In this document: in pieces, positions 19,001 to 37,466 of the stretch | Layout of the letters: every line of letters begins with the position of its first letter | Numbering within the stretch: position 1 is the stretch's first letter | Virus record (IMG/VR): IMGVR_UViG_2939121850_000001 | Direction: 5' to 3' (one strand) | DNA from: a virus | Lineage: Duplodnaviria > Heunggongvirae > Uroviricota > Caudoviricetes | DNA length: 64,000 bases | Made by a program: the position numbers and the translations under genes | The notes under the pieces: model-generated | What the model saw: only the letters and a program-made list of their open reading frames with translations | The model's database searches: none | Told to the model about the DNA's origin: nothing

Positions 19001-19201
19001 GCTGGCGAGGTATTTGGGCTTCAGGAAGCCTCAGGCATGAAAGGCGTTCTTTTCCGTGCGAAAGACGCAATCAAGGCGAAATTCGGCGCTCGCTGGCTGC
19101 CAGCGAAGGCGAAGAACAGCGATTTCCCGGGTAACTGGTGGATTATCGAGACAAAACACAACGTGGCGGACGTTCTGGCCGTCATCCAACAATACGCATA
19201 A
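13049..19201 (+). pseudogene. darB: darB 3' fragment (helicase-containing body, 2049 codons)
   Basis: Helicase Walker A GFGTGLGKTT; 206 + 2049 codons = 2255 aa, the size recalled for P1 DarB. Confidence 0.85.
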
Positions 19202-19966: not shown

Positions 19967-21274
19967 TTACACTATATTCTTAACTATAAGGTTGGCGTCC
20001 TTCAAGGTGCCTAATGTTTCAATGTGGTTTTTTATCATTAATCTATTTGAGGCAATTATTGCAGGCCATCGTGTTTCCCAAGCTCTGTAAGCATACCAAG
20101 AAACTCCCCAATTCCTTTCTTTACTCATATGACCCATCGAGTATTCAACTGCGTCTAAATATGTTTTTTCATACTTAGTATTGCTAACCTCTATGATGCT
20201 TCCAAAATATATAAGCCATTTTGCCAACTGTTCATATTGCTCCCACGCTCCGTTATTCCTTGTTAACTTTCTCTTTTTTTCTATTATCCTTTCGAAAAGA
20301 GAAACGACTTTATCATCATTCCAATCTAAACCTTCCGATATAATTGATGATATAATTTGATAAAATGAATCCTCTAATTTAAGATATTCATTTTTATAAG
20401 TATAAGCCCCCGAAACAACTTTTCTGATATTTTCGCGCGCTCTTTCAATGATGTCTTTAATGAGAGACATCTTATAACTTAATCGACTAAAGAAACAATC
20501 TATTTCTGTATTGTCAATTACCCTTATACCAAAGCAATAGAAGTAATAATCCTTCATATCTTGACTTACTTTGTTGCGAGATATCAAAAAGATATTAGAG
20601 CACAGGGCATTATTTTTCGAAAATTTTTTATAGTCATTTATAATTGCTTTAAGATTTGTGTCGCTTAAAGAATACCCTAATATCGCAACTGTATTTTCAT
20701 GCAGCATCGTACTAAGTTTTCGTGAAAAATAAGTATCGGAATTTATAAATCTGAAGTAATCATCTGAAGTGACAATCATATTTTTTGGCGAATCAATAGA
20801 ACCATGAATATGATATATTTTCACCTTGGATGGATACTTTGGAATTGGCAGACCGGGCGTGATAGACTGTACACTTTCATCTCCAACCAAGCATTCAGCC
20901 AACTTGTCATAATTTGTTGTAATGACACGGAATGAGTTTTTTTGGAAAAAATCTTTTATATTTGATATGTCTTCTCCAAGTTGAATTGGAGATATGATGT
21001 CAACAATTTCATCATAAATCGACTTACCCTCAATATTGAGCTTCAAAGATAGTATTTGTGCGGCTTCTTCAAGACTCAGTGCTGGTGGTTTATCATCAGG
21101 GAATAACGTGTCTTCCAACTTTTTGGCATTGTGAACTTTGCTGCAAACTTTTTTTAATAGTTCCTTCCACGTTGGAGCTTCACCGTTCGAGACTGCCTTT
21201 GAAAAGCCAGTCCCGGTAAATAGACAAAGCCTGCTTGTAGCGGTAGCGTATGCTAACTCAACATATTCGCTCAT
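19967..21274 (-). CDS. SIR2-like (DHS-like NAD-binding fold) protein with uncharacterised C-terminal domain, 435 aa; candidate defence NADase
   Basis: Motifs GTGFS (21-25), TTNYD (119-123), IYHIHGS (153-159); RBS ggag; AT-rich gene in a roughly 50% GC backbone. Confidence 0.7.
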   Translation of the reverse strand: MSEYVELAYATATSRLCLFTGTGFSKAVSNGEAPTWKELLKKVCSKVHNAKKLEDTLFPDDKPPALSLEEAAQILSLKLNIEGKSIYDEIVDIISPIQLGEDISNIKDFFQKNSFRVITTNYDKLAECLVGDESVQSITPGLPIPKYPSKVKIYHIHGSIDSPKNMIVTSDDYFRFINSDTYFSRKLSTMLHENTVAILGYSLSDTNLKAIINDYKKFSKNNALCSNIFLISRNKVSQDMKDYYFYCFGIRVIDNTEIDCFFSRLSYKMSLIKDIIERARENIRKVVSGAYTYKNEYLKLEDSFYQIISSIISEGLDWNDDKVVSLFERIIEKKRKLTRNNGAWEQYEQLAKWLIYFGSIIEVSNTKYEKTYLDAVEYSMGHMSKERNWGVSWYAYRAWETRWPAIIASNRLMIKNHIETLGTLKDANLIVKNIV

Positions 21275-21330
21275 TACTTACTCCATTTACTTATAGTTCT
21301 ATGGAGAAGTATACCCTAATGCATTGACGT

Positions 21331-21999
21331 TTATAGATAATTTCCTTTTCCAGTTAACTCCCCTTTAGGCACCCGTTTTTGTGCCAGTGTTTGGGTTCCG
21401 CGAATTATGTTAATCAGAGGGCTTAGTAACGATGATTCCTGGCGGGCATCAACTTCTCCTGCCATTGCCCTAATGTAGTCGGCGCTTGCAACGTTGTTAT
21501 ATTCCGTTGCGAAGCAGCATAACAACGTCAGAACGTGCTCTGTCGTTATTTCGCTCCAGTTGATGTTGAAAAATTCATCGCCTTTTTTGTCATGTTCGGA
21601 ATCGAAGATGCTTTGGTGAAGGATGTATTTGCCGGATTCCTTGCGCGGTAACTTGATCGCTTTCTGGCGTTCCAATTCCTTGTAAATCTGCATCGCTTCA
21701 ATCAGTACCGGTCTGCCGTTCATGAAGGGATCACGCAACCTTACACGCTGGCCAACTCGACCGGTAATAAAGCTGTTTTCCTCTTCCACCAGCACGATAA
21801 AACCCTTTTCCTCTTTTTCTCGCAATTCGCGCAGCAGCTGGAGTTCCATATCGCGGCGGCGTTCAGGGTAGCTGGTCCGCTCAGCCATTATCAGCTCATT
21901 GTTGATCCATGCGGCAGTCATTGACGCCGGTTTGCCGACGCTCATCGAAACAACGCATATTTTCTTATCCATAGCGCCCCTACAAAAAAGAAAAGCCAC
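21331..21999 (-). CDS. mat: particle maturation protein Mat-like
   Basis: 222-aa ORF between ref and the res-mod slot; named by synteny. Confidence 0.5.
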   Translation of the reverse strand: MAFLFCRGAMDKKICVVSMSVGKPASMTAAWINNELIMAERTSYPERRRDMELQLLRELREKEEKGFIVLVEEENSFITGRVGQRVRLRDPFMNGRPVLIEAMQIYKELERQKAIKLPRKESGKYILHQSIFDSEHDKKGDEFFNINWSEITTEHVLTLLCCFATEYNNVASADYIRAMAGEVDARQESSLLSPLINIIRGTQTLAQKRVPKGELTGKGNYL

Positions 22000-22160
22000 C
22001 AGCGGCGGCTTAGCAATACAACTGAAGGTAGCGCCCGGTACTCAGACTGTGCCGTCCATGGAATATTTGAAAAGGGATCCATCCGTACCGGGCGTGTGAT
22101 GATTCTGACTGAAGTCACTTGTCAGTTGTCAATCATTTATCATTAAAAATAATATATTTA

Positions 22161-22721
22161 TTAGTGCATGATGTTTGCCATCTCATAGGCGTCAGCCAGT
22201 AACTCCATCTCTGACTTGTTCAGCAGGGTGAATTCTTTCTTGCCTCCAACCACACCATCGGCATGAACAGGGACCAGCCAGGGGTATTTTGCTCTTACTT
22301 CAGCCGGTGCTGCATGCTGGTGGTGCCATCTACAAAGTGGCAATTGCTTTTTATGACAACCCGGCGCGGTACGACCGGAGATATGGTGCAGAGACACCTC
22401 TTCAGATATTACTCCATGCATGTAGCAGGCAATGCAGGGGAGAGTGCCAAGAGCATTGGCGATGGTCCGTTCCTCCGCCGTCGGTGTTCGCCCCTTCAAG
22501 CCACGAGATTTTATTTTTACCGCACTTTTCCGCGTTTTGCTGGCTGGTGGGCGCTCTTTCTGTTTAGCGATACGGCGGTCGATAGAATCCCGCATTTTCT
22601 GATATTGCGATTCTCGCCAGGCGGGGTCAGCCAACTTTTCCCGTTGCCGAGCGATCGCTCGTTCTCTGGCTGCCTTCTGCCACTCGCGGCGCTGTTCAAG
22701 TTTTTGTTCGATTGTTTTCAT
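22161..22721 (-). CDS. ref: Ref, HNH-type recombination enhancement endonuclease (186 aa)
   Basis: Starts MKTIEQKLEQ at Met27 of the ORF; Cys/His HNH-like motif CxxC...HH...CH; between cra and mat. Confidence 0.75.
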   Translation of the reverse strand: MKTIEQKLEQRREWQKAARERAIARQREKLADPAWRESQYQKMRDSIDRRIAKQKERPPASKTRKSAVKIKSRGLKGRTPTAEERTIANALGTLPCIACYMHGVISEEVSLHHISGRTAPGCHKKQLPLCRWHHQHAAPAEVRAKYPWLVPVHADGVVGGKKEFTLLNKSEMELLADAYEMANIMH

Positions 22722-22819
22722 ATGGCAAAAAAAAGGCGGCCTAATGGCCGCCAATGATGTCAAGGAGTGAAGTAATGGCAACGTCTTCGTAGTTGACAAA
22801 AACTGCGGCTAAATTATAG

Positions 22820-22836
22820 CAATCAATTAGAGCAAT
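22820..22836 (-). promoter_or_regulatory. C1 operator-like site upstream of ref (14/17)
   Basis: Core attagagcaat on plus strand, reverse complement of ATTGCTCTAAT. Confidence 0.5.
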
Positions 22837-22970
22837 GGTAGATATTTTGTTTCTCGCGAATCACATTTTTTCACTTCAGTACCTGTGTGCTATACTCCTT
22901 CTTGATTGATTGATTGGATGCGGAATACAAACCCGCTCTTTTGTGCAGCCTGGCTCCTTGCCAGGCTTTT

Positions 22971-23282
22971 TTATTTCATCATGGAAGCTGTTAACGCTTT
23001 GGATCTTGCTGAACTGATTGAAAGGGCATTGTTTACCTTACCCAGGAGTTCGCCAAATTCCACCATCACTCTAGTAAGCCCGCGCCGCGCTTCCTCCTCC
23101 GTTGCATTCATCACAAAATGTTCAGCACTCCGCATGCTTTTAACGGGGAACGCAACAGATATCGAGTCGATATCAGGCATCCTATCGCTCAACTTTACGG
23201 TGACAATGACAGATGGCGACAGAATATTAGTGCTTACAGACAGCACTACATATTTTCCGTCGATGTTGAAATCCTTTCTCAT
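22971..23282 (-). CDS. cra: Cra-like protein (cre-associated), 103 aa
   Basis: ORF directly downstream of cre on the same strand; named by synteny. Confidence 0.45.
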   Translation of the reverse strand: MRKDFNIDGKYVVLSVSTNILSPSVIVTVKLSDRMPDIDSISVAFPVKSMRSAEHFVMNATEEEARRGLTRVMVEFGELLGKVNNALSISSARSKALTASMMK

Positions 23283-23298
23283 ACGCCACCATAAATAT

Positions 23299-23315
23299 CA
23301 AAGAATTAGAGCAAT
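23299..23315 (-). promoter_or_regulatory. C1 operator-like core (perfect 11-bp core, 13/17 overall)
   Basis: attagagcaat located between cre stop and cra. Confidence 0.4.
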
Positions 23316-23332
23316 CATTTACGTGTTAATGG

Positions 23333-24364
23333 CTAATTGCCATCTTCCAGCAGGCGCACCATTGCCCCTGTTTCACTATCCAGGTTACGGATATAGTTCA
23401 TGACAATATTTACGTTGGTCCAGCCACCAGCTTGCATGATCTCCGGTATTGAAACTCCGGCACGGGCCATATCTCGCGCGGCTCCGACACGGGCACTGTG
23501 TCCAGACCAGGCCAGGTACCTCTGTCCAGAGTCATCCTTAGCCCCGTAAATCAATCGGTGAGTTGCTTCAAAAATCCCTTCTAGGGCGCGAGTTGATAGC
23601 TGGCTGGTGGGTGATGGCGAGGCAACACCATTTTTTCTGACCCGGCAAAACAGGTAGTTATTCGGATCATCAGCCACACCAGAGACAGAAATCCATCGCT
23701 CGACCAGTTTAGTTACCCCCAGGCTAAGTGCCTTCTCTACACCTGCGGTGCTAACCAGCGTTTTCGTTCTGCCAATATGGATTAACATTCTCCCACCGTC
23801 AGTACGTGAGATATCTTTAACCCTGATCCTGGCAATTTCGGCTATACGTAACAGGGTGTTATAAGCAATCCCCAGAAATGCCAGATTACGTATATCCTGG
23901 CAGCGATCGCTATTTTCCATGAGTGAACGAACCTGGTCGAAATCAGTGCGTTCGAACGCTAGTGCCTGTTTTGCACGTTCACCGGCATCAACGTTTTCTT
24001 TTCGGATCCGCCGCATAACCAGTGAAACAGCATTGCTATCACTTGGTCGCTGCAGCCCGGACCGACGATGAAGCATGTTTAGCTGGCCCAAATGTTGCTG
24101 GATAGTTTTTACTGCCAGACCGCGCGCCTGAAGATATAGAAGATAATCGCGAACATCTTCAGGTTCTGCGGGAAACCATTTCCGGTTATTCAACTTGCAC
24201 CATGCCGCCCACGACCGGCAAACGGACAGAAGCATTTTCCAGGTATGCTCAGAAAACGCCTGGCGATCCCTGAACATGTCCATCAGGTTCTTGCGAACCT
24301 CATCACTCGTTGCATCGACCGGCAATGCAGGCAAATTTTGGTGTACGGTCAGTAAATTGGACAT
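23333..24364 (-). CDS. cre: Cre site-specific tyrosine recombinase (343 aa)
   Basis: Matches recalled P1 Cre over its full length with a handful of substitutions; loxP lies 420 bp upstream. Confidence 0.98.
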   Translation of the reverse strand: MSNLLTVHQNLPALPVDATSDEVRKNLMDMFRDRQAFSEHTWKMLLSVCRSWAAWCKLNNRKWFPAEPEDVRDYLLYLQARGLAVKTIQQHLGQLNMLHRRSGLQRPSDSNAVSLVMRRIRKENVDAGERAKQALAFERTDFDQVRSLMENSDRCQDIRNLAFLGIAYNTLLRIAEIARIRVKDISRTDGGRMLIHIGRTKTLVSTAGVEKALSLGVTKLVERWISVSGVADDPNNYLFCRVRKNGVASPSPTSQLSTRALEGIFEATHRLIYGAKDDSGQRYLAWSGHSARVGAARDMARAGVSIPEIMQAGGWTNVNIVMNYIRNLDSETGAMVRLLEDGN

Positions 24365-24371
24365 TTGACAC

Positions 24372-24593
24372 TCAGATAATGGTTTTAAGTAAAGTGTACA
24401 GGATCGGCTCTGCCTTTACCTGTTTATGGTTCTCGTCATAGAAACGCCAACGACCGCGACTGCGTTCTATTTTTTCTTCACCGCGCGATAATGACAGTTG
24501 ACAACTATCACGATCAAACCCTTTTGCCCGCCAGTAACCACGATTTTTCTCAAGCTCAAGATGAGTGGACACTTTAGCAGCTGAATATCCCAT
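24372..24593 (-). CDS. candidate small basic protein (73 aa) immediately upstream of cre
   Basis: ATG with RBS aggtg 7 nt upstream; stop 8 bp before cre ATG; lies in the cre promoter region. Confidence 0.3.
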   Translation of the reverse strand: MGYSAAKVSTHLELEKNRGYWRAKGFDRDSCQLSLSRGEEKIERSRGRWRFYDENHKQVKAEPILYTLLKTII

Positions 24594-24690
24594 TTTTCAC
24601 CTCTGATTGATTGGTGGTGCTAAGTGCGCTACGCGAAATCTGGAGCACTAACACTGCCAACATTTCGCAGATTTTACGTAGCGCAACCTT

Positions 24691-24710
24691 GATCAAATGA
24701 TCAAGTGATC
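24691..24710. promoter_or_regulatory. cluster of three GATC (Dam) sites in cre upstream region
   Basis: gatcaaatgatcaagtgatc. Confidence 0.4.
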
Positions 24711-24782
24711 ACTATTTGACCTGATAAGGTATTGAACTGTATGGATTTACAGGTAAATTAATCATGTTCAATAACCCTTAAG

Positions 24783-24816
24783 ATAACTTCGTATAATGTA
24801 TGCTATACGAAGTTAT
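24783..24816. other. loxP recombination site (34 bp)
   Basis: Exact ATAACTTCGTATA ATGTATGC TATACGAAGTTAT. Confidence 0.98.
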
Positions 24817-24859
24817 TAGGTCTGAAGAGGAGTTTACGTCCAGCTGCGCATAAAAATCA

Positions 24860-24876
24860 ATAATTATTAGAGCAAT
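24860..24876 (-). promoter_or_regulatory. C1 operator (15/17)
   Basis: ataattattagagcaat, reverse orientation; paired with the next operator upstream of coi. Confidence 0.65.
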
Positions 24877-24942
24877 AAATTTTGAGAGAAAAATCCCACT
24901 CCACCAGCCAAAAACTGGATTGTTTTTCATAGTTGTTTGACA

Positions 24943-24959
24943 ATTGCTCTAATAAATTA
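24943..24959 (+). promoter_or_regulatory. C1 operator (16/17)
   Basis: attgctctaataaatta. Confidence 0.75.
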
Positions 24960-25197
24960 TAGTTTTGCCGCCGTTACGTAATACGACTTTGGATTCACTA
25001 TTTAATGTGTCTTCAGCGTTGTAGAGCGGCTCAGAAGGAAATGAGCAAACAGGGAAACCTTATACAACGGCATTACAGCTATGCATTGCTCATCTTACAC
25101 ACAGCGCAATGTTGTTAGATTACCCCAGCATGGATCATGGGTGAAACAGTAGGTCAGAGCTTCAGGCTCTGTGTTGTCAATACAGTGAGGCATAATT

Positions 25198-25407
25198 ATG
25201 GCTTTCATTCAACCAACCATCGACGACGTTAGACATTGCTCTAACGCTTTATCTGTAGACCCTGCCGAAACCGACGCTGCCCGCGCCATTGCTGAACACT
25301 ACTCAAAGATATCCAATCAGGAGTACCGCATCACCCAAGACGACCTGGATGACCTCACTGACACAATCGAATATCTCATGGCAACTAACCAGTTAGACTC
25401 ACAATAA
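25198..25407 (+). CDS. coi: Coi, C1 inactivator (69 aa)
   Basis: 69-aa acidic ORF immediately upstream of c1, downstream of the operator pair. Confidence 0.75.
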   Translation: MAFIQPTIDDVRHCSNALSVDPAETDAARAIAEHYSKISNQEYRITQDDLDDLTDTIEYLMATNQLDSQ

Positions 25408-25423
25408 ATGCACTAATAAATCT
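25407..25423 (+). promoter_or_regulatory. weak C1 operator-like site between coi and c1 (14/17)
   Basis: aatgcactaataaatct. Confidence 0.35.
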
Positions 25424-25517
25424 ATTATTTTTGTTTGATCCCTCTATAATATAGGTCAGTAATGACCGGTTTTCTCAGCCGGGCGTTATTGACCATGTCA
25501 ATTCTGGAGGAGGATCA

Positions 25518-26369
25518 ATGATAAATTATGTCTACGGCGAACAACTGTACCAGGAGTTCGTCAGCTTCAGGGATCTCTTTCTAAAAAAAGCTGTTGCACG
25601 CGCCCAACACGTTGATACAGCCAGCGACGGTCGTCCTGTACGCCCGGTTGTCGTTCTACCGTTCAAAGAAACTGACAGCATTCAGGCTGAAATTGATAAA
25701 TGGACTTTAATGGCGCGGGAACTGGAACAGTACCCAGACCTCAATATCCCAAAGACTATTTTATATCCAGTGCCTAACATCCTTCGCGGTGTGCGCAAGG
25801 TTACAACTTATCAGACAGAAGCTGTGAACAGCGTCAACATGACCGCTGGCCGCATTATTCATCTGATTGATAAGGACATTCGCATCCAAAAAAGCGCGGG
25901 GATCAATGAGCACAGTGCGAAATACATAGAGAACCTGGAAGCAACAAAAGAGCTAATGAGGCAGTACCCGGAGGATGAAAAATTCCGTATGCGTGTACAC
26001 GGCTTTAGCGAAACAATGCTGCGCGTCCACTACATCTCCAGTAGCCCTAACTACAATGATGGTAAATCAGTTAGTTACCATGTACCGCTGTGTGGCGTGT
26101 TTATCTGCGATGAAACTCTCCGTGATGGAATCATCATCAACGGTGAATTCGAAAAAGCAAAATTTAGCCTTTATGACTCCATAGAACCGATCATCTGCGA
26201 CCGCTGGCCACAAGCAAAAATATATCGCCTGGCAGATATTGAAAATGTAAAAAAACAAATTGCCATCACTCGCGAAGAGAAAAAGGTTAAGTCAGCCGCA
26301 TCAGTTACGCGCAGCCGTAAAACCAAGAAGGGGCAGCCAGTAAACGACAACCCCGAAAGCGCGCAATAA
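25518..26369 (+). CDS. c1: C1 repressor of lysogeny (283 aa)
   Basis: 283 aa starting MINYVYGEQLYQEF; matches recalled P1 C1; the operator motif recurs across the window. Confidence 0.95.
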   Translation: MINYVYGEQLYQEFVSFRDLFLKKAVARAQHVDTASDGRPVRPVVVLPFKETDSIQAEIDKWTLMARELEQYPDLNIPKTILYPVPNILRGVRKVTTYQTEAVNSVNMTAGRIIHLIDKDIRIQKSAGINEHSAKYIENLEATKELMRQYPEDEKFRMRVHGFSETMLRVHYISSSPNYNDGKSVSYHVPLCGVFICDETLRDGIIINGEFEKAKFSLYDSIEPIICDRWPQAKIYRLADIENVKKQIAITREEKKVKSAASVTRSRKTKKGQPVNDNPESAQ

Positions 26370-26372
26370 ATT

Positions 26373-26394
26373 ATGCCCGGCATCAACCGGGCAT
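26373..26394. terminator. hairpin after c1 (convergent with antirepressor-like gene)
   Basis: atgcccgg / ccgggcat stem. Confidence 0.5.
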
Positions 26395-26401
26395 TCTTCC
26401 A

Positions 26402-27409
26402 TTATTCAGCCGCCACCGGTTTTAACAAGCCAGCATCGAGCAGTTTACGCGTCAACCACTGTTGGCCTTTCCCCGTTAATTGGGGCGTCAGCCGTATCTG
26501 GTAGCCCTCTTCATCATCCAGCACCACTTCTTTCACTGTGAAATATCCGGCGTTTATGTACTGCTGGAACGGTACATTTTTACGGCCGCCGGACGCTATC
26601 AGAATGCCGTTCTCCCGTAACCAGGCAAACAGCGCATTTTGTTTAAGTCCAACGACCTTTGCAAAATTCCCAATCAGGATCCCCTTAGCCACTGATACCC
26701 GGTCGGCAAAATCGACTTTGGGGGCTGCGGCCACCAGCTGCTGATTTAGCTGATGGGCTTTCTGTTCCAGAAGTTGCTTTTGTTCGGCCAGTTCGGCAGC
26801 CAGGCGGAGGGCTTCTGGGAGTGTCTGGGGGATTGCGATCGGTTGCTGTTCTTTTTGTCGGAAGTAGCTGTCTTCCAGTTTTTCAAAGAATGCCCACGCT
26901 TCATTTGTGTCCACGATCTTAGACATGCGTGCCGCTCCGCGCTCGGCCCAGAGAATTACCTGACTTGTATATTTGCTAACCAAGTGACTAATAGTCACTA
27001 GCCTTTTAAATTCCTTTAATTTTGAACCAGTTAAGAGATAGTAATGCTTACCTTCTTCAAAGCGATCGGGGTTGCGAGACAGATTTTTACGAATATTCGC
27101 TTCATCGGTCCCATACCCCTTAGCAAGAGTCTCAGTTGTCACTACACGCACTCCCAGCCATTCCAGAACGGGAATTTCATCAGGCTGATTTTGAGCAACC
27201 ACCAGCTCTGATTCCTGAACTGAAGGTGCATGAGTTTTTTCTGATTTAACGTTAGTTGCTTTCATTCTGTGTGCCTCCTTGCGTGTTTCGGCTGCGACGG
27301 TTGCGTAATTCAGATGACCCTGTTCGAGCAGGTATTCGCGGATATCAGACAACAGGATACGGTGAACCGCGTTCTTGTCCTTTCTCCGGTAAAGTTGTTT
27401 GGTGATCAT
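26402..27409 (-). CDS. antirepressor-like protein (N-terminal ORF6N-like, C-terminal KilAC-like), 5' end separated by IS10
   Basis: 335-aa ORF; removing IS10 and one TSD copy restores an in-frame N-terminal extension beginning at ATG 28852. Confidence 0.55.
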   Translation of the reverse strand: MITKQLYRRKDKNAVHRILLSDIREYLLEQGHLNYATVAAETRKEAHRMKATNVKSEKTHAPSVQESELVVAQNQPDEIPVLEWLGVRVVTTETLAKGYGTDEANIRKNLSRNPDRFEEGKHYYLLTGSKLKEFKRLVTISHLVSKYTSQVILWAERGAARMSKIVDTNEAWAFFEKLEDSYFRQKEQQPIAIPQTLPEALRLAAELAEQKQLLEQKAHQLNQQLVAAAPKVDFADRVSVAKGILIGNFAKVVGLKQNALFAWLRENGILIASGGRKNVPFQQYINAGYFTVKEVVLDDEEGYQIRLTPQLTGKGQQWLTRKLLDAGLLKPVAAE

Positions 27410-27426
27410 GAAGTAGTTGGCAATAA

Positions 27427-27435
27427 CGCCTGGTA
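27427..27435. repeat. IS10 target-site duplication, left copy
   Basis: cgcctggta, identical to 28765-28773. Confidence 0.9.
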
Positions 27436-28764
27436 CTGAGAGATCCCCTCATAATTTCCCCAAAACGTAACCATGTGTGAATAGATTTTGAGTAAGCAGG
27501 GTTGCAGCCACGAGTGAGTCTTCCCTTGTTATTGTGTAGCCAGAATGCCGCAAAACTTCCATGCCTAAGCGAACTGTTGAGAGTACGTTTCGATTTCTGA
27601 CTGTGTTAGCCTGGAAGTGCTTGTCCCAACCTTGTTTCTGAGCATGAACGCCCGCAAGCCAACATGTTAGTTGAAGCATCAGGGCGATTAGCAGCATGAT
27701 ATCAAAACGCTCTGAGCTGCTCGTTCGGCTATGGCGTAGGCCTAGTCCGTAGGCAGGACTTTTCAAGTCTCGGAAGGTTTCTTCAATCTGCATTCGCTTC
27801 GAATAGATATTAACAAGTTGTTTGGGTGTTCGAATTTCAACAGGTAAGTTAGTTGCTAGAATCCATGGCTCCTTTGCCGACGCTGAGTAGATTTTAGGTG
27901 ACGGGTGGTGACAATGAGTCCGTGTCGAGCGCTGATTTTTTCGGCCTTTAGAGCGAGATTTATACAATAGAATTTGGCATGAGATTGGATTGCTTTTAGT
28001 CAGCCTCTTATAGCCTAAAGTCTTTGAGTGACTAGATGACATATCATGTAAGTTGCTGATAGGTTTCCAGTTTTCCGCTCCTAGGTCTGCATATTGTACT
28101 TTTCCTCTTACTCGACTTAACCAGTACCAACCCAGCTTCTCAACGGATTTATACCATGGCACTTTAAAGCCAGCATCACTGACAATGAGCGGTGTGGTGT
28201 TACTCGGTAGAATGCTCGCAAGGTCGGCTAGAAATTGGTCATGAGCTTTCTTTGAACATTGCTCTGAAAGCGGGAACGCTTTCTCATAAAGAGTAACAGA
28301 ACGACCGTGTAGTGCGACTGAAGCTCGCAATACCATAAGCCGTTTTTGCTCACGGATATCAGACCAGTCAACAAGTACAATGGGCATCGTATTGCCCGAA
28401 CAGATAAAGCTAGCATGCCAACGGTATACAGCGAGTCGCTCTTTGTGGAGGTGACGATTACCTAACAATCGGTCGATTCGTTTGATGTTATGTTTTGTTC
28501 TCGCTTTGGTTGGCAGGTTACGGCCAAGTTCGGTAAGAGTGAGAGTTTTACAGTCAAGTAAGGCGTGGCAAGCCAACGTTAAGCTGTTGAGTCGTTTTAA
28601 GTGTAATTCGGGGCAGAATTGGTAAAGAGAGTCGTGTAAAATATCGAGTTCGCACATTTTGTTGTCTGATTATTGATTTTTGGCGAAACCATTTGATCAT
28701 ATGACAAGATGTGTATCTACCTTAACTTAATGATTTTGATAAAAATCATTAGGGGATTCATCAG
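27436..28764 (-). mobile_element. IS10 (1329 bp)
   Basis: Ends CTGAGAGATCCCCTCATAATTTCCCC (inside end) and CTGATGAATCCCCTAATGATTTTTATCAAAATCATTAAG (outside end, reverse complement); 9-bp TSD. Confidence 0.95.
27449..28657 (-). CDS. IS10 transposase (402 aa)
   Basis: Starts MCELDILHDSLYQFCPELHLKRLNSL; IS4-family DDE transposase. Confidence 0.95.
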   Translation of the reverse strand: MCELDILHDSLYQFCPELHLKRLNSLTLACHALLDCKTLTLTELGRNLPTKARTKHNIKRIDRLLGNRHLHKERLAVYRWHASFICSGNTMPIVLVDWSDIREQKRLMVLRASVALHGRSVTLYEKAFPLSEQCSKKAHDQFLADLASILPSNTTPLIVSDAGFKVPWYKSVEKLGWYWLSRVRGKVQYADLGAENWKPISNLHDMSSSHSKTLGYKRLTKSNPISCQILLYKSRSKGRKNQRSTRTHCHHPSPKIYSASAKEPWILATNLPVEIRTPKQLVNIYSKRMQIEETFRDLKSPAYGLGLRHSRTSSSERFDIMLLIALMLQLTCWLAGVHAQKQGWDKHFQANTVRNRNVLSTVRLGMEVLRHSGYTITREDSLVAATLLTQNLFTHGYVLGKL

Positions 28765-28773
28765 CGCCTGGTA
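28765..28773. repeat. IS10 target-site duplication, right copy
   Basis: cgcctggta. Confidence 0.9.
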
Positions 28774-28852
28774 TATCCCTGGTACTGATACAGGCAGTGT
28801 GCTGTTCAATTGCCTCGATCATCTCTTCACGGGTGACTAATGACGTTCTCAT
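28774..28852 (-). pseudogene. severed 5' end (first ~26 codons) of the antirepressor-like gene
   Basis: ATG at 28852 overlaps stop of upstream small gene (ATGA); frame continues into 27409 ORF after IS10 removal. Confidence 0.6.
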
Positions 28853-29070
28853 AGTCCCTCCTGAGCAGAAGCGTTAACAGGGAGGCACCAGTAACTGAGA
28901 GAATTGCGTGAATCAGTGGAAAAACGGGCAGAGAAAATACATGGGGCGTCAGGAAGCTGAGAGCGGGCCTCATCTTCTGTTGGTGCAATAACGAAGTGAT
29001 AGTGACGTTTTTGGCAGGAGTAAAAGCGCCAGATAAATTCAGGATGAGTTGGGGTAGGGATAGTAGCCAT
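28849..29070 (-). CDS. small Icd-like protein (73 aa), first gene of the antirepressor module
   Basis: RBS ggagg before ATG 29070; coupled to downstream gene; the longer 187-aa ORF in this frame has a low-complexity N-terminus and no RBS. Confidence 0.45.
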   Translation of the reverse strand: MATIPTPTHPEFIWRFYSCQKRHYHFVIAPTEDEARSQLPDAPCIFSARFSTDSRNSLSYWCLPVNASAQEGL

Positions 29071-29234
29071 ATTGGCAGCCTCCTTAGACGTTGGTATGTA
29101 ACCACCGCAGAAGAGACCAATCTTGCTGGCGGTGGACTGTACGGAGTTGGCCTTACTGGCGTCCAAGGTAACCAGCCTACCCGAAGGTAGCCCCATACAG
29201 CCCACCATTGTAGAGGTGTGCGTGTACGCCGATA

Positions 29235-29259
29235 CAAAAAAAGACGCGAGCGGCGTCTG
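29235..29259 (-). terminator. hairpin + T7 run inside the leader of the antirepressor module (possible small-RNA terminator or attenuator)
   Basis: gacgc..gcgtc stem followed by TTTTTTT on minus strand, about 130-150 nt downstream of the C1 operator. Confidence 0.4.
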
Positions 29260-29388
29260 TATCGCCTTAGACTTAAGCGGGAGGCCAATCCCGGCACCCG
29301 TTTTAATGAGGTGCCTGATAAGCATAAACCGAAAATGCCACAAGGCGCAAGAGGTCAGGTTCAATGTAACATCGGTAGCTAAAAAACA

Positions 29389-29405
29389 CAATTTATTAGA
29401 GCAAA
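29389..29405 (-). promoter_or_regulatory. C1 operator (15/17) just downstream of pacB stop, facing the icd/ant-like module
   Basis: caatttattagagcaaa. Confidence 0.6.
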
Positions 29406-29408
29406 TAT

Positions 29409-30893
29409 TCATTCATTAAGCCATGCCAGAGCTTCATCAACCTGCGCTTCGTCTTCGACGCTAAGCCCTTCATCCTGGGGAACATAATCCGCCAGCATAG
29501 CGAAACAATATGTATCCCAATGGTCTGGTGAGTGCAGGTTGAGTTTTTTCTTCATATCCTCCTTACTCATCACCTTCCATTGACCTGCGGAGTTAATCCC
29601 TACAGGGATTTTCGACGCTTCCTCAATAGTTTCATTACCCTTATCCAGTCTCATACGACCAGATTTTACGGCCTCTGCGGCTTGAACATTGGCATAAGCA
29701 CGTTTATCAAAGTACAGGCTCTTATCTTCACGGCTATGCATCTTTTTACCCCAGCGTATACGCTGTACGGTAATACCATAATACTCGTACATCAGATCCG
29801 CCGTTGCTTTACCCAGGCCATCGCCGTCTATCGCTATGGTGATATTGGGGAATCGCTCAGGATTACATTCTGCGAAAATTTTGGCGGCAAGCTGCGTTTC
29901 TGTAACGTCTGTGTATTCCAGCATTCGATAGTTGATTACACGGCGTTTATTTCGCTGGCCGGACACCATCATGATATTGATAACGGACTTATCCCGTCCC
30001 GTACCACCAGCAACGTCCACACATGCAAGCCAGCCCCATCCTTTTGCAATCTTGACTTTCCGCCGCGTTGCACGTTCAACCTCATCACGTCCAAGAAGGA
30101 AGCCATCCTGTGATTTAGGGAATAGGCCGCGTACCTTAATCATGTACATAGGGTTATCACGCCCGCCGTACTCCGCCAGCTTCATTTTGATAAATGCTGG
30201 CGTTACCAACGGTGATTCCTCACTGTTAAGCGTGATCGCCGTATAAACGCCATCAGGGTTACCAGGACGCTTGGCCAGTTTATGGTGTGTATCGTAGAAA
30301 TAGCCGCTTGGGCGTGTAGGCTGTGACAGCAATAAGATGCGGTTATCCTGTCCGGTAAGAGCACCGGTGATGATACCGAAAGCTCTATCACTGACACCGG
30401 AGGCTTCATCGATAATATACAGAAGATGATCTGCGTGTTCACCGGCGAGAGCTTCTTCACTTCCCAGACGAAAGCCCTTCGGTACTACAGTCCATACACC
30501 TTTACCAGTAACCTCATAGAAAGCGGTTTCTGTCAGAACAAAATAATCAGCAAGCCATGGGAAACGGCTGGTGGCAGTAGCCCAGTTTATCTTGATGTAC
30601 TTGAATATACCGGTCATTACCTGCTGAATTTTGTTCGCAACGATAATGGCACGGGCACCTGGATACATGATTATGAACAACATGATCATGATAGAAGTCA
30701 TGTCTGATTTCCCGGTACCGTGACCAGACGAAACAGATGTCTTGCTACCCTGTTCCTGCACAGACTCAATAATCAGATCCTGCTGCCAGGTAGGTGTTTT
30801 GCCGAACAAAACATCAGCGGCAGCAATCCAGTCATAACGATATAGCGCCACCAGCTCGCGCCAACGTGGATCCGTTACGCAACTTCTGGCCAT
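29409..30893 (-). CDS. pacB: terminase large subunit PacB (494 aa)
   Basis: Walker [11 protein letters not shown]; coupled to pacA; size matches P1 PacB. Confidence 0.85.
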
Positions 30894-32086
30894 TAATCAT
30901 CATCCCCGTATAGCTTGCGGGTAACTTCTTCGTCTTCCTCCTCGTCTTCGTCCAGGTCTTGTTCCAGCCATGGGTCGTTTGATACACCTTCAGTATCAAC
31001 ATCTCCATAACCGCCTGTATCAACAATATCGGCGATTTCTTCCCTACGCTGCTCAATCCACAATGCGGCATCGGCGCGGCGGTTGGCGGCCCGTTCTCGC
31101 GCAACTTTGTCCAGATCTTCAAGAGAAGGGCCACCGACGGCTGTTTGCCTTTCCTCATCATCGGTATTGGTCTTAGGAGCACGCAGATCGGCTTTGATTT
31201 GCTCCAGCATCAGGGGCGGAACTTTCCCGCCATGCGCCTCGATGAATTCAGCTGCTTCCAGCACTGACCAGTTATTTTCACGCTTTCGTTCGTATGCCAG
31301 TTTAACAATGCCAGCTTGCCCCATAGACAAAGCGTGCTTTTCCGCCTCCCGGCTTTCTTTTCGATAGTTATTCCGGATGCTGTAAATGGTGTTGATCAGG
31401 CTGCTTATCTGCGCGGAACAGCTGTTTAGCATGCTCGCGATACGGTATTCAGGCGGAGTTCCTTCATCATCGTCTTTTTGCTGATCGCGCATTTCCTGAA
31501 CCAAGCGAATACACGTATCCCTGGCGTTCTCCAGCATAAGGAGATGAGAGAGAGACTTTTCCAGAAGAGTGGTTTCCAGAACATCAGCCCCGGACCGACG
31601 CAACATAGCGCGCGCGGCCTTCCGCGCTTCAACGTTATCTATCAGGTAATCGCCAGCTTCGAATTCAAAGCGTTCACCATCATCATCCAGGGTGTCGCGT
31701 TCCAGGCGATCACGTAAGGTCCGGTGGGCGCGGGTGATCACGTCATGATCATCAGAACGATCATTTATGCGCTTATTCTGGCGCTTCGCGTTCTCGACTG
31801 CGGCACTGACAACAGCATTAACTCTTTGTTTTTCAGCCATTTCAGCCACAACGTGATCACCTGCACGTTGATCATTAGCGTGATCAATGATCATGCTTTT
31901 TAGTGGTTTTCTGACAGGCTTATTTGGCTTACGGCTGTCCGCTGTTCCGGTGTCTTCTTTGAATGCACGGAGATAACGACGTGCGGTGTTTGGGTTGAGA
32001 TTAAACTCGGCGGCATATTGTGCGATGGTGTAACCACCATCTCGCGCCAGGCGAGCAAAATTCTTCTTGTGATCGTCCCAGGTCAC
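30893..32086 (-). CDS. pacA: terminase small subunit PacA (397 aa); contains pac site
   Basis: Acidic C-terminus; TGATCA(G/C) hexamer clusters inside the gene. Confidence 0.85.
31735..31894. other. pac packaging site
   Basis: Two clusters of TGATCA(C/T/A) hexamers (31735-31764 and 31853-31894), about 160 bp, Dam-methylatable. Confidence 0.8.
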
Positions 32087-32172
32087 TTATGCTTCCTTTC
32101 GTATAAAACTCTTTTTGACGCGAGGGTAACGAAAGTCACATGTCAAAAGGCCCGGAACGGGCAAGCAATCAA

Positions 32173-32625
32173 TCAGATACGTGCGGATGTGGCATTACCG
32201 TAATGACGGTGCTGACGGACCACCTTATTGAAAAGTTGACGCGCCATTACCCAAGGCTGGTGCTCCCGGCGTTCCTTTTCGTCCTGCGTCATATAGAGTT
32301 CGTTCTGGAGTTTTTCATCAAACCGGCGCGGAGCGCGGCTGCGGCGAAAGAATTCAGGATTCAGAGAGTGGATCTGAAATCTACGTGGGCGTGTACTGTC
32401 ATCAATCAAAACAGACGAATACTTAGACACAGCGATAGCCTTTAAGCGCAGATAAACATCGCGCTTATCGACATCCAGATGCGGGTATTCCTTTTCAAGA
32501 ATTGCTGCGAGTTCTTTCGCTGATAGAAGAGATTTAGTGCGGATCATGTAATCCGCAATCTCGTACGATGTTATTCGTGAGTGATTTATTTCCATGAAGT
32601 GGCGTCCCTGCCAGTTAAGTAACAT
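32173..32625 (-). CDS. lpa: late promoter activator Lpa-like (150 aa)
   Basis: 150-aa basic ORF immediately upstream of pacA; C1 operator in its upstream region. Confidence 0.6.
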   Translation of the reverse strand: MLLNWQGRHFMEINHSRITSYEIADYMIRTKSLLSAKELAAILEKEYPHLDVDKRDVYLRLKAIAVSKYSSVLIDDSTRPRRFQIHSLNPEFFRRSRAPRRFDEKLQNELYMTQDEKERREHQPWVMARQLFNKVVRQHRHYGNATSARI

Positions 32626-32695
32626 CCTGTCACCTACTGATTAGCCCATGTCAACTAATCAACGTCGAATATAATACCCTCGATTAAAGAAATAG

Positions 32696-32712
32696 CAATA
32701 CATTAGAGCAAT
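32696..32712 (-). promoter_or_regulatory. C1 operator upstream of lpa (14/17)
   Basis: caatacattagagcaat. Confidence 0.55.
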
Positions 32713-32713
32713 T

Positions 32714-33757
32714 TTATCTAACGCTCGACGAGTGACTTGTGATAGCGCCGACTCCAAGCGCGTAATCAAAGAACAATCGTTGATGCATCGCCAGCCTACC
32801 GTGCGTCTTCTCCCAATTATCGCGGTCACGCTCAATATCACGCTGGCATGACTGGCACAGAGGAATAGCATAAATGTCATGCGCGCATAATCGACTATGA
32901 CGAACGATATAAGGCGTAATGTGAGCGCCAGCTCCCGCAGCTCCACAGCCACAGCATGGACGGGAAGCCACAAAATCCATGTACTCGGGCAATTTTAGCG
33001 ATTGAAGTTTTGGTATTTTGAAATGCGCCATGCCAGGGTCGGCGTCAACATCCACAGGGCATACTTTTGCACGCATCGGCGCGGCGCGTTCTTCCATCAT
33101 CTGAACATATGCTGTAGCGCGATCGTCATACGGGCGAATATCCGCCTCTTTCAGAGGTCCGCTATCCTGCGGAGTAGCCTTCATCTTATTTATTGATATG
33201 CGGCAGACTTCTTCCGGCATCAGGTGCATCATGTTGCGCATGAAAGCCCACCAGCACAGCTCCTGAATACTTAAATCATGGCTATTTGAAAGGCCCATTT
33301 CCTGACGGGCGACATCCAGTATCCAGTTAACGCGATTATTGTGCAGCGTTTCTTTCAGCTCATTAAAACCACGCATCCGGTAATGGTTATCGTGATGCCA
33401 GCACAACAACACCGCGCTATTGTCTCGTTCAGCGTGGACAATATGGTTGTCACACCAACTACGATCTGCGGCCTGGCATTGACCCTCTTTCCTACGCAAC
33501 CACGCCACCAGCGCGTCAATTCCACCAATACGGCGAAACAGTTCATCGCTGTTAAAAAACGGCTGCAACGCCTCATTTGTTGCCATGGTTTGCTCGGTAA
33601 CAACGAGTCCGTCTTCCATGTGCTCGATTAACTCACGCGGCACCGGCTCCATAATAAATTTACGGCCAGCCTCCACCAGCTTTCTGACCTCCTGATCCAC
33701 TTTGAACGTGGCGAGGCCAAGCTCTTTCTGTACAAAGGGAGTAATTACGGCTTTCAC
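32714..33757 (-). CDS. pdcB: PdcB-like protein (347 aa) with Cys/His-rich C-terminal region
   Basis: ORF downstream of doc; named by synteny. Confidence 0.45.
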
Positions 33758-33784
33758 ATCACACCTTTAATCACTGATTGGGCT

Positions 33785-33985
33785 TTATCTGCTGCCCGGC
33801 ATTCTCTGTTTAAGCACAACCATTTCCTGACGGCATAACACAGCAATAGCGGTCCTGGCACCAATTTGCTTACCAACCAGGTATTGCTTTACCTCGCGGC
33901 GACTCACGCCATCAAGAAGCATCTTTAACGCTTCACGGGACAACTTGTTGTATTTACGTGCCATTAATCTACTCCGCAGAACCAT
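33785..33985 (-). CDS. pdcA: PdcA-like small protein
   Basis: Small basic ORF directly after doc. Confidence 0.4.
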
Positions 33986-34349
33986 ACAATCTACGTAACG
34001 TGTCGGCGACAGAAGATACAGATATCTCGCCAGTCGCAGCGCCTACAGTAAGGTCTGCCAGTTCAGGTGAATCAAATACCTGCACCCCGTTACGGCGTAG
34101 AAATAACAGCGCACTGTTTAGCGCGGTACGCTTATTGGCATCATTGAATATATGCCCTCTCGCTGTAGCCACCAGGTAGGTGGCGGAGACTTCGAAAAGG
34201 TCGGTGATCTCTTCGTAGGCAACTCTGGCCTGAACTCTCCCGATAATGGCCTCTGCCCTACCCGGATCTGACATTCCCGGCAGGCCGCCGTAGCGGTTTA
34301 TATTCGCATCATGAAGCGCAATAAGTTCTTCCGGTGATATATGCCTCAT
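33969..34349 (-). CDS. doc: Doc toxin (126 aa, Fic-fold kinase)
   Basis: 126 aa starting [17 protein letters not shown]; overlaps phd stop. Confidence 0.95.
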
Positions 34350-34570
34350 TATCGGTTAACCAGTTCCTTGTTGGTGGAGTCCAGGGTGTCAAACAGGGAT
34401 GCAAATTCAGCATCCAGCGCCGCTTTTTTGTAGGCTTCGAAAGTAGCCTTGCTGACAATTACTGCTGGCTCACGGCCTCTGCGGGTGATTTCAACCTCTT
34501 CCCCGGCTTCAACATTGTTGAGCACTTCAGAAAGGTTGCCACGCGCGGTACGGAAGTTAATGGATTGCAT
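34349..34570 (-). CDS. phd: Phd antitoxin (73 aa)
   Basis: Starts [39 protein letters not shown]. Confidence 0.95.
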
Positions 34571-34642
34571 AAACACCTCGTGTACTCGTTATGTGTACAC
34601 AATTATAAACTTCACAGGCATAAAGCACCAGCACTTTGCAGC

Positions 34643-35032
34643 TTAAATAACCGGACAATCATCAAATTCCCCACTTCGGGCATCATTGATGACATGTGTG
34701 ATCACACCAAAAACAGCATTACTGCCCGTGTATCCATCGTCATCTACTGGTAACGCCTCTTTCTTCCCGGTGCTTAAGTCCTCCAGGTGCTGGCGCGGAT
34801 ACTTCCTGTATCTCTTTATGCGATATTCACCCTCCATAGCGCACACAAGCAGAGAACCATCAACCGGAGTAAGCGAGGAATCAACCACCAGCAAAGCACC
34901 CTGCAATATTCCCTCACGGTGATGGCTATCAGCTGCCCGCATGAAGTAGGTCGCTGAAGGATGTCTAATTATCTGCTGATCAAGAGAAATTCGGCTTTCA
35001 ACATAATCCGCCGCAGGAGAAGGGAAGCCCAT
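34643..35032 (-). CDS. humD: HumD (UmuD'-like SOS mutagenesis protein homolog)
   Basis: 129 aa with LexA/UmuD-type peptidase-like C-terminal domain; LexA box upstream. Confidence 0.6.
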   Translation of the reverse strand: MGFPSPAADYVESRISLDQQIIRHPSATYFMRAADSHHREGILQGALLVVDSSLTPVDGSLLVCAMEGEYRIKRYRKYPRQHLEDLSTGKKEALPVDDDGYTGSNAVFGVITHVINDARSGEFDDCPVI

Positions 35033-35050
35033 AGCGTTTTACCTCAATGA

Positions 35051-35070
35051 TACTGTTTATTCATACAGTA
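35051..35070. promoter_or_regulatory. LexA (SOS) box upstream of humD
   Basis: taCTGTttattcatACAGta, matching CTGT-N8-ACAG; 19 bp upstream of humD ATG. Confidence 0.75.
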
Positions 35071-35155
35071 TACATTGAAAAGGCATAGTTTGTGAAAGCG
35101 GGGTTTGTAGGCGCGCCACGCTGGGGGCTAATCACATTTCTCCCCCATCTTGCCG

Positions 35156-35407
35156 TTATTTTTTTGGTGCATCCTCGTTCTGATACACCGGATCGCTCCC
35201 TTTTGGCAACTGGAGGCTTAACTGCCGGTAGTGCCGTAGCCGTTCCATGAAATAGGCGCGCAGGTTTTCCGGTTGCTCACGGGCCACCTGCTCTGCAATC
35301 ACAGGTATATTCAGCCGTTCTTTGTAAGCAACGCCGCTGGCGGCAAGGTCTACGTTCACCTTGTCTCGCTCTTCCTGGCTTTTAGCTGCTATATTTCGAT
35401 CTGACAC
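35156..35407 (-). CDS. hot: Hot (DNA polymerase III theta-subunit homolog), 83 aa
   Basis: 83-aa ORF adjacent to humD; named by size and synteny. Confidence 0.5.
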
Positions 35408-35439
35408 AAGAAACCTCCAGGAGTTAGTGGATCAGGCAC

Positions 35440-35790
35440 ATGCACAATAACGTTCTCAATGTTAGCCGTTCAATTCAGACAATCAGAGACTGCACCAGTG
35501 TGGTGGCATCAATCCCATTGCGAAACAGCATAGACGAACTGCAAATTCGTGTATTGAATCCGAATCAGGCTAATAAGCAATTGCGCTTTATTTTGACGCT
35601 GAAAAGTGAAACAGAGGGGATAAAGCACAGCGTAAAAGTGTTTTCTGAGGCCATTCTGCTTAATGGGAAGCTCCGGCATCTGGTAAGGCCAGAACGTCAA
35701 TATCCTGACGTCCTGGCGCGTGAAAAAGACCTTCTTTCTGAAGTTCAGGATAGGGTGATCGATTTCGTCAAATGCTATCCCCTGCATTGA
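35440..35790 (+). CDS. hypothetical protein (116 aa); strand ambiguous
   Basis: Competes with a 92-aa minus-strand ORF at 35509-35787; plus frame has more protein-like composition. Confidence 0.3.
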   Translation: MHNNVLNVSRSIQTIRDCTSVVASIPLRNSIDELQIRVLNPNQANKQLRFILTLKSETEGIKHSVKVFSEAILLNGKLRHLVRPERQYPDVLAREKDLLSEVQDRVIDFVKCYPLH

Positions 35791-36632
35791 GGGCAGGTGT
35801 TCCCTTCCGCAAAGTAGGGAAAATTGCTATCAAGTTCATCACACCATCTGCGATGGTCGTAGCACCAAAAAGCCTCCCACGGCAAACCAAAAGACTTCAT
35901 CCACTGGGACACTCGATCTGGTATATCTGCTGGTGGCAGTTCTTCTGGCAATAATTTGCCTGATAATTCCCTTTCCGCCCGCGACAGCATTTTTTTGAGG
36001 CTCGCGTTCTCTTTTTCAGCCACCAGCGGCAATAAAGCCCTGGCCATCTTATGAACCAATAGTGCATCAATAATGCCAAGCGTATGCCCCGGCTTAATGT
36101 TTAATGCCGCCTCAAGGTGACACCTTTCCAGGTCACTTTTCTCGGCTTGTTTATGATGATCTGGTGTAATAACGTCGCCCAAAACACGGCTAATTCTTTC
36201 TCGTAATTGCTGGGTGCCAGCACACTTGATCGCTGTATCGTGGAGACGGTTAACCAGTTCGCGATAAACATGCGGCTTAATGCGGATACGTTCACCGGTG
36301 ACGCCCTTTCCTGGCGCTGGCACCGAACTATCCGGAATATCCGGATAGTTGCCAGCCTCGTAAGCTACCCACAGCCAGTGCATGAATGTTTCAGTGGACA
36401 CACAACCACAGTCCACATCGATTTTTCCGCGTTGCTGTTCCAGCCAATGCTCAAAATTCAATCTACACGTATTACTTTCATGTTGCTCTTTTTGTCTCAA
36501 GGCCAGCATCTGCTGGGCTATTTCCAATACTTCATCTGCCGTATATCCAGCACCGTGACCATACATTTCGATACGGGAAATAATCTCTGATATGCGCTCT
36601 TCAGTGATTCTGGTCATTTCTTTTTGCGCCAT
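35775..36632 (-). CDS. hypothetical protein (285 aa)
   Basis: ORF in minus-strand operon. Confidence 0.5.
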   Translation of the reverse strand: MAQKEMTRITEERISEIISRIEMYGHGAGYTADEVLEIAQQMLALRQKEQHESNTCRLNFEHWLEQQRGKIDVDCGCVSTETFMHWLWVAYEAGNYPDIPDSSVPAPGKGVTGERIRIKPHVYRELVNRLHDTAIKCAGTQQLRERISRVLGDVITPDHHKQAEKSDLERCHLEAALNIKPGHTLGIIDALLVHKMARALLPLVAEKENASLKKMLSRAERELSGKLLPEELPPADIPDRVSQWMKSFGLPWEAFWCYDHRRWCDELDSNFPYFAEGNTCPQCRG

Positions 36633-36988
36633 TTCTTTTCACATTCCTTAGTCCATTCTTCAATGTTCATTTTGGCAATATCAGTCATTCCATCACCTAA
36701 GAAATACTTTTTCCGGTATGTCTTGCACTTAAACCACACTACAACAGCCACCAGCCAGAAAATAAAAGGCCATACAGCAATACCAACGACAGCCGCGATA
36801 AAGCCCAATAGCCATAAATGAAGCTCTCCAACTTCTGTTTCCGGCAATATTCTTAAAGAATTAAACAGCAGGATGAACGAATGGTCGTATGCATTGGCAG
36901 TACAAGACATGCAATCCATATAATTAAAGTCATAGCCTGCGGCTGCCGCCCATAATGGGCGGTCAAGAAAATGTTTTAGTGTCATCAT
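36614..36988 (-). CDS. hypothetical membrane protein (124 aa)
   Basis: Two hydrophobic helices; lysine-rich C-terminus. Confidence 0.45.
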   Translation of the reverse strand: MMTLKHFLDRPLWAAAAGYDFNYMDCMSCTANAYDHSFILLFNSLRILPETEVGELHLWLLGFIAAVVGIAVWPFIFWLVAVVVWFKCKTYRKKYFLGDGMTDIAKMNIEEWTKECEKKWRKKK

Positions 36989-36994
36989 ATAAAT

Positions 36995-37384
36995 TTAAGG
37001 TTCAGACCAGTTATCTTCAATAGCAATGCTTAATCTTTGTAGCCATTCTGCTAATTTCAGCATTGCTTCTCTTTCGCTTAAACCACGAGGAAAATCATCA
37101 AGCGAAATTGTTGGCTTGAATCCCCCGCGATTATCCATTTCAACTGTCAGATTTTGTTCCAGCACGGTATTTCTTACGCGGCTATTGTGCCGGAGCAAAT
37201 ATACTGAGCGTGATTTATTGGTTTTGTGGTCTAGCTTATATTCGGTAAGTATCATCTGGCTTTTGCCATGATTATTACCTCTCCACATACTTACCTCACT
37301 TAATAAAACAACTCCATGCGTAGTTGATGATTTTTTCCCACGTAATATAAATCTGCACTCCGGCAGTAAAACCAAAGCCAACAA
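36995..37384 (-). CDS. hypothetical protein; start uncertain
   Basis: ORF in operon. Confidence 0.35.
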   Translation of the reverse strand: MLALVLLPECRFILRGKKSSTTHGVVLLSEVSMWRGNNHGKSQMILTEYKLDHKTNKSRSVYLLRHNSRVRNTVLEQNLTVEMDNRGGFKPTISLDDFPRGLSEREAMLKLAEWLQRLSIAIEDNWSEP

Positions 37385-37466
37385 TTGCTGAAAAAATCAA
37401 AACATTTACTTTTGACATTATAAATTTTCTCTCGGTGTCGTAGGTGATAGCACCATAATTGATAAT

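Follow-up and report, generated by a model that had tools for sequence, protein, structure and literature searches.

An IS10 insertion interrupts the ant gene of an apparent accessory immI-type operon in a P1-like phage-plasmid

A complete copy of IS10 lies within the antirepressor gene ant in the 64,000-nucleotide stretch of DNA analyzed here (hereafter the window, to which all positions refer unless a relative is named). The best explanation of the whole, which is very probably correct, is a single IS10 transposition into ant of an accessory operon, leaving the module most likely without an antirepressor. By this explanation one IS10 would have moved by normal cut-and-paste transposition into codons 27–29 of the ant1/ant2 gene; the operon that received it would be an accessory one of the immI type, located between pacB and c1 of a P1-like IncY phage-plasmid. 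The insertion is expected to be strongly polar, with the poorly translated transposase as the only long ORF across ~1.3 kb, and the module would most likely stop supplying antirepressor while still supplying the C4 immunity RNA and Icd. The element and its target duplication are as follows.

27436–28764, minus strand: IS10 (ISVsa5-type), 1329 bp, with its inside end at 27436 and its outside end at 28764
27449–28657, minus strand: IS10 transposase ORF, 402 aa, uninterrupted (Pfam DDE_Tnp_1; NCBIfam NF033591, IS4 family)
28650–28719, plus strand: RNA-OUT antisense RNA (Rfam RF00240, 97.3 bits against a gathering score of 41)
27427–27435, no strand: left copy of the 9-bp target-site duplication, CGCCTGGTA (sequence and the empty site of a relative)
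28765–28773, no strand: right copy of the 9-bp target-site duplication, CGCCTGGTA (same evidence)

The initial annotation of this DNA, made from the sequence, had described a complete 1329-bp IS10, and the exact ends and full-length 100% identity to the IS10/ISVsa5 copies of many plasmids bear this out. The 5′-most letters of the element are CTGAGAGATCCCCTC (inside end) and its final letters are GGGGATTCATCAG (outside end); a sequence check gave the termini as CTGAGAGATCCCCTC and CTGATGAATCCCCTA, the latter in reverse complement. As inverted repeats the two termini agree only in part, at 19 of their first 30 positions. Copies at 99% identity or more are present in 1160 records, and one that is 100% identical flanks Tn10 in Salmonella Typhi pHCM1, where it sits at the jem-gene side of the transposon. 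The transposase scores 402 bits with NF033591, against a cut-off of 152, and its DDE residues D97, D161, and E292 are all in place. RNA-OUT lies at the transposase 5′ end, proximal to icd; its transcription leaves IS10 across the outside end, with the ant remnant behind it and icd and C4 ahead in antisense orientation. Since its ORF and both ends are intact and its duplication looks fresh, this copy is probably competent for transposition. It is the only IS10 in the window and stands apart from any Tn10; a composite transposon or larger cargo was considered and ruled out on the grounds of this single copy and of flanks that both continue the sequence of a relative. Another IS10 was seen in NZ_CP073955.1, a 94-kb E. 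coli plasmid in the size range of P1-like plasmids, inside a Dam-family methyltransferase gene (30926–32278).

The 9-bp duplication, previously reported as perfect, is indeed CGCCTGGTA on both sides of the element; the same nine letters occur once more in the window, at 1380, and the chance of a 9/9 flanking match is ~4e-6 per site. The closest complete relative found, NZ_CP055201.1, is a 92.9-kb IncY plasmid of Shigella flexneri that is collinear with the window at 97–99% identity, and it supplies the comparison with a relative lacking IS10 that the initial annotation had proposed: window 22729–27435 aligns to 51919–56621 of this plasmid and window 28765–38074 to 56613–65922, its site is empty, and the two alignments overlap by exactly the 9 duplicated bp. 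As a multicopy repeat, IS10 is a frequent cause of broken or confused short-read assemblies, and an IS10 copy misplaced during assembly, or a chimeric join, might in principle produce such an arrangement; the perfect duplication, the exact canonical IS ends and flanks collinear with the relative's empty site leave this artifact a negligible probability. A chimeric contig, the case that had been named as fatal to the insertion, is excluded because the otherwise empty site of the relative carries the 9-bp overlap, and a misjoin creates no duplication. IS10 has a target preference, and no requirement, for the hotspot consensus NGCTNAGCN; the target used here matches this preference at only 3 of the 6 specified positions in either orientation.

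The insertion appears to be private to this element. No record in PLSDB or among complete E. coli genomes covered at least 80% of a 2.3-kb query spanning the junctions, and the exact junction patterns were absent from GTDB representative genomes, IMG/VR, and JGI metagenomes. Novelty is limited to the allele; every component, and the kind of event, is already known.

When the IS and one copy of the repeat are removed in silico, a 370-codon minus-strand ORF is restored that runs from the ATG at 28852 to a stop at 26402. Its present parts are listed below.

28774–28852, minus strand: severed 5′ part of ant1, codons 1–26 (start fixed by RefSeq)
28852–28727, minus strand: chimeric ORF of 41 codons, made up of the ant1 stub, the duplication and IS sequence (ORF reading)
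26402–27435, minus strand: 3′ part of ant, codons 27–370, with the ORF6N and KilAC/ANT domains (Pfam, alignment)
26402–27265, minus strand: intact Ant2-type ORF from Met84 (ATG 27265), with AAGGAGG upstream (P1 annotation, alignment)

The same gene in relatives is annotated by RefSeq as a 1113-bp KilAC-domain antirepressor gene preceded by a 222-bp Icd-like gene that overlaps its start, and it is this annotation that places the ant1 start. Counted from the ATG at 28852, IS10 entered after 26.3 native codons, in agreement with the earlier estimate of about 26, and in the part of the protein that belongs to Ant1 only. Transposase and ant are both on the minus strand, co-oriented as had been stated, and the reported 26 bp between the inside end and the remaining ORF are exactly the 26 bases to the next in-frame ATG, at 27409. 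Restored Ant contains the Pfam domains ORF6N (residues 117–200) and ANT/KilAC (258–359; 108 bits) and is 62% identical to P1 Ant1, with residues 1–83 and the C-terminal third strongly conserved. Met84, which corresponds to the annotated P1 Ant2 start, is invariant across the aligned paralogues and follows the first start by 83 codons, as in P1; Met1 and Met84 each have a Shine-Dalgarno sequence upstream. From its KilAC/ANT domain and its identity to P1 Ant1, the product is presumed to be an antirepressor that binds and inactivates C1. What had been called an ant-like gene is thus upheld as an antirepressor gene; the refinement is that it belongs, as the ant1/ant2 homologue, to a second immI-type operon that is complete, and does not stand alone.

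The genome is a P1-like phage-plasmid of the IncY type, in which genes for the C1 repressor, PacB, and PacA are present. The features surrounding the insertion are given in order of position.

25518–26369, plus strand: c1 repressor gene, the presumed Ant target (NCBIfam phage_rep_C1, 612 bits against 500)
26373–26394, minus strand: terminator-like hairpin that separates c1 from ant, the two genes being convergent (terminator search)
28849–29070, minus strand: icd homologue, 73 codons, intact (NCBIfam Icd-like, 49.8 bits against 25; annotation of relatives; alignment)
29082–29120, minus strand: C4 target sites a2 (29120–29114) and b2 (29089–29082) (full complementarity)
29125–29212, minus strand: C4 antisense RNA (Rfam RF01695, 75.9 bits against 45)
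29237–29314, minus strand: isrK-like leader with C4 targets a1 (29288–29282) and b1 (29272–29265) (Rfam RF01394, 60.8 bits against 50)
29389–29405, minus strand: C1 operator-like sequence TTTGCTCTAATAAATTG, which aligns with the annotated P1 operator Oc4 AATGCTCTAATAAATTT
30893–29409, minus strand: PacB (gene context)
32086–30893, minus strand: PacA (gene context)

IS10 struck a coherent accessory operon of the immI type that comprises a C1 operator, an isrK-like leader, C4, icd, and ant, and that has its own C4 specificity. The region upstream of ant aligns column by column with annotated P1 immI: the operator-like site is found 4 nt past the pacB stop, a promoter region probably follows on its 3′ side, the leader ends in a hairpin plus T-run (29258–29238), b2 covers the icd Shine-Dalgarno sequence, and the icd stop overlaps the ant1 start (ATGA, 28849–28852). 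The C4 target pairs occur twice, in the P1 order (in the leader and before icd), and pair completely with the C4 loops; in shuffled sequences both C4 partners appeared together in 5 of 2000 cases for a1/b1 and 2 of 2000 for a2/b2. The recognition loops of C4 are AGGCCAA and CCTTGGAC, as against CTGTCAA and TCACTAAC in P1, and loops and targets so unlike those of P1 imply that the module has a separate (heteroimmune) immunity specificity. The operon is located between pacB and c1 and not in the canonical place beside sim and kilA-repL, and is therefore a paralogous accessory module and not the immI locus itself.

Modules of this kind are repeated in the lineage. NZ_CP055201.1 has three icd-ant modules (the canonical immI, one near cre and one between pacB and c1), and the number in relatives is two or three. 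The window lacks the cre-side module, and the canonical immI locus would lie outside its 64 kb; searches by tblastn and Rfam found no second copy of ant or C4 within the window. For pTZ20_1P and RCS47 the literature already describes an ant gene between pacB and c1 (PMC6906374). Of 5426 complete E. coli genomes, about 321 have this type of ant near full length, and its location is nearly always a plasmid.

Other features of the window and of this relative were recorded in passing. The cre-side module of NZ_CP055201.1 keeps the P1 a′ loop (CTGTCAA) and differs at the b′ position. Where NZ_CP055201.1 has that module, window 19967–22799 (minus strand) has other genes instead, which encode a 435-aa SIR2-like protein (Pfam SIR2_2; PADLOC PDC-S25/ThsA-like matches), a Ref-like RecA-dependent nuclease and a 222-aa protein with no family match; the segment looks like a variable cargo spot, possibly related to defense. 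A second, independent mobile-element insertion is present at window 9813–13048, a 3236-bp Tn3-family element that has perfect 38-bp inverted repeats, a 5-bp duplication (TTCAT) and a 1005-aa transposase (NCBIfam, 1000 bits) as its only product; it splits a darB-like methylase/helicase gene (9193–9822 and 13052–19201) and is absent from NZ_CP055201.1. Window 54851–56508 (minus strand) contains three tRNA genes, in keeping with a P1-type genome.

A ribosome that begins at the ant1 start now meets a stop after 41 codons, 12 codons inside the IS, and full-length Ant1 can for this reason no longer be made. The insertion leaves C4, its targets and icd as they were, and likewise the Ant2-type ORF and the ribosome-binding site that serves it. 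IS10 and Tn10 insertions are classically strongly polar, and translation of the transposase from outside transcripts is inhibited. Strong polarity would be expected in the present case because the operon transcript must cross ~1.3 kb with little translation before it arrives at the Ant2 start, and we infer that such polarity, and hence loss of function of the module, is the likeliest outcome.

The initial annotation had allowed that read-through from the transposase could still express an N-terminally truncated protein. The 335-codon remnant that begins at the first in-frame ATG (27409, Met36) is not a likely form of it, as this ATG has neither a Shine-Dalgarno sequence nor a promoter-like site nearby; the realistic product of read-through would be of the Ant2 type, from Met84. 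Partial inactivation, in which read-through from the operon promoter or from weak IS10 promoters yields Ant2 without Ant1, with altered or residual function, is considered unlikely. In its favor, the Ant2 start with its AAGGAGG is shared by all paralogues and survives intact here, the transposase is read in the same direction as ant, and a search for intrinsic terminators toward ant, inside IS10 and between the IS and ant, gave none that was strong or convincing. Against it stand the polarity of IS10 and the inhibited translation of its transposase, and a minus strand on which no promoter-like site was detected around the inside end and from the IS to ant. The active P1 antirepressor is, moreover, described as an Ant1–Ant2 complex (PMC8546580, PMC8198154).

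The transposase ORF and the ant remnant also share a reading frame: in window 27410–27451 (minus strand) the interval consists of one TGA plus 13 sense codons, which run into native Ant sequence (PGVIANYF...). Rare read-through of the TGA would yield a transposase–Ant fusion, a configuration that could be counted in favor of residual function; a shared frame has a 1-in-3 chance, was given no weight, and is most likely a coincidence.

Loss of antirepressor by polarity, the preferred outcome, is also in keeping with the direction of the outward promoter of IS10. This promoter, pOUT, lies near the transposase 5′ end and is known to activate neighboring genes, with read-through into adjacent DNA at ~10% of PlacUV5 (PMC9330008). 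Here it faces icd and C4 on the opposite strand, away from ant, and expression of ant would therefore need read-through of ~1.3 kb of poorly translated RNA. The same orientation raises the question of new regulation, in which pOUT transcripts antisense to the ant1 stub, icd, and C4 would lower C4 and icd and shift the immunity specificity of the module. RNA-OUT and pOUT are directed at icd and C4, pOUT read-through is documented, and no terminator-like site was found on the plus strand at 28765–29500; the argument is purely positional, however, the orientation has a 1-in-2 chance, and the allele was present in no other record searched and so carries no sign of selection, all of which makes this outcome most improbable. 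A broader proposal is that the insertion does more than knock out the gene, through the combined loss of Ant1, retention of an Ant2-only ORF and antisense transcription of icd and C4 from the constitutive pOUT, and that it turns the operon into a pure immunity/antisense module or lowers C4. This proposal is very unlikely to hold; if it were true, lowered C4 could change which superinfecting P1-like phages are excluded.

The expected loss of antirepressor would have a small fitness effect, neutral to mildly favoring stable plasmid carriage, because ant of P1 is dispensable and doubly repressed and because the lineage usually carries further ant modules. In a CRISPRi screen of P1, ant1, ant2, icd, and c4 were non-essential (PMC10695390), and in the P1 lysogen the ant operon is repressed by both C1 and C4 (PMC8198154). 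A measurable stabilization of lysogeny by the insertion is possible, as a matter of speculation.

Independent lesions of the same module were found in other plasmids. In NZ_CP019262.1 ant has a premature stop (...KYTS*VILW..., at 403–1515 of the extracted locus), and the annotation of three more plasmids shows the same gap; in NZ_CP030784.2, an Escherichia albertii plasmid, a different IS of ~1.3 kb with a 395-aa ORF lies between the C1 operator and C4, in the leader (1871–3194 of the extracted locus). In addition, ISApl1-mcr-1 is inserted in canonical ant1 of P7-like plasmids, such as pMCR_SCKP-LL83 and its relatives (PMC5786510). Among these elements, antirepressor genes are therefore a tolerated and recurrent site of disruption.

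The significance of the present allele is small: it is one more case in which the antirepressor genes of phage-plasmids tolerate, and repeatedly gather, insertions and inactivating mutations. This bears on the drift of P1-like elements with resistance or virulence cargo from inducible phage to stable plasmid. The interrupted module preserves the C4/icd/ant circuit of P1 well, as a heteroimmune copy, and the IS-bearing element and its empty-site relatives would form a natural pair with which to address the part of the module in induction and superinfection immunity.

Among known systems, the closest counterpart of the module is the immI operon of P1 and P7, with which it shares the order and spacing of C1 operator, promoter region, a1/b1, C4, and a2/b2 over the icd Shine-Dalgarno sequence, followed by a 73-codon icd that overlaps ant1 by ATGA and, 83 codons into ant1, a second start in the same frame for Ant2; the Ant N-terminus and the KilAC C-terminus are highly conserved. 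It differs in that immI of P1 and P7 adjoins sim/kilA/repL whereas the module here lies between pacB and c1, in the other sequence of its C4 loops and targets, in a central Ant domain that is ORF6N rather than that of P1 (62% overall identity), and in a leader that scores as Rfam isrK. The RNA that gives that family its name, isrK, is a dual-function sRNA of Gifsy-1 (PMC4825925). The isrK-orf45-anrP locus of Gifsy-1 in Salmonella resembles the module in its leader sRNA with terminator, of the same Rfam family, and in an antirepressor-like gene that is gated by translation of a short ORF upstream of it (PMC4825925); it differs in belonging to an integrated lambdoid prophage, in an output of AntQ-mediated antitermination and in that no C4-type RNA is described there. 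The Rfam score suggests that the Salmonella locus and the leaders of P1-type immI operons may be related.

RCS47, pTZ20_1P, and many IncY plasmids have the same extra ant module in the same position, with ant uninterrupted at this site. The ISApl1-mcr-1 case is alike in that a P1/P7-like phage-plasmid persists with its antirepressor gene broken by a mobile element (PMC5786510); there the insertion is in ant1 of canonical immI, carries a resistance gene and lacks target repeats, whereas here a bare IS with perfect repeats sits in an accessory module. The element itself matches IS10 (IS4 family, the terminal element of Tn10; ISVsa5 family in NCBI nomenclature) in its 1329-bp length, its ends, the 9-bp duplication, the 402-aa DDE transposase, RNA-OUT and Dam sites at both ends, and this copy shows no difference of substance.
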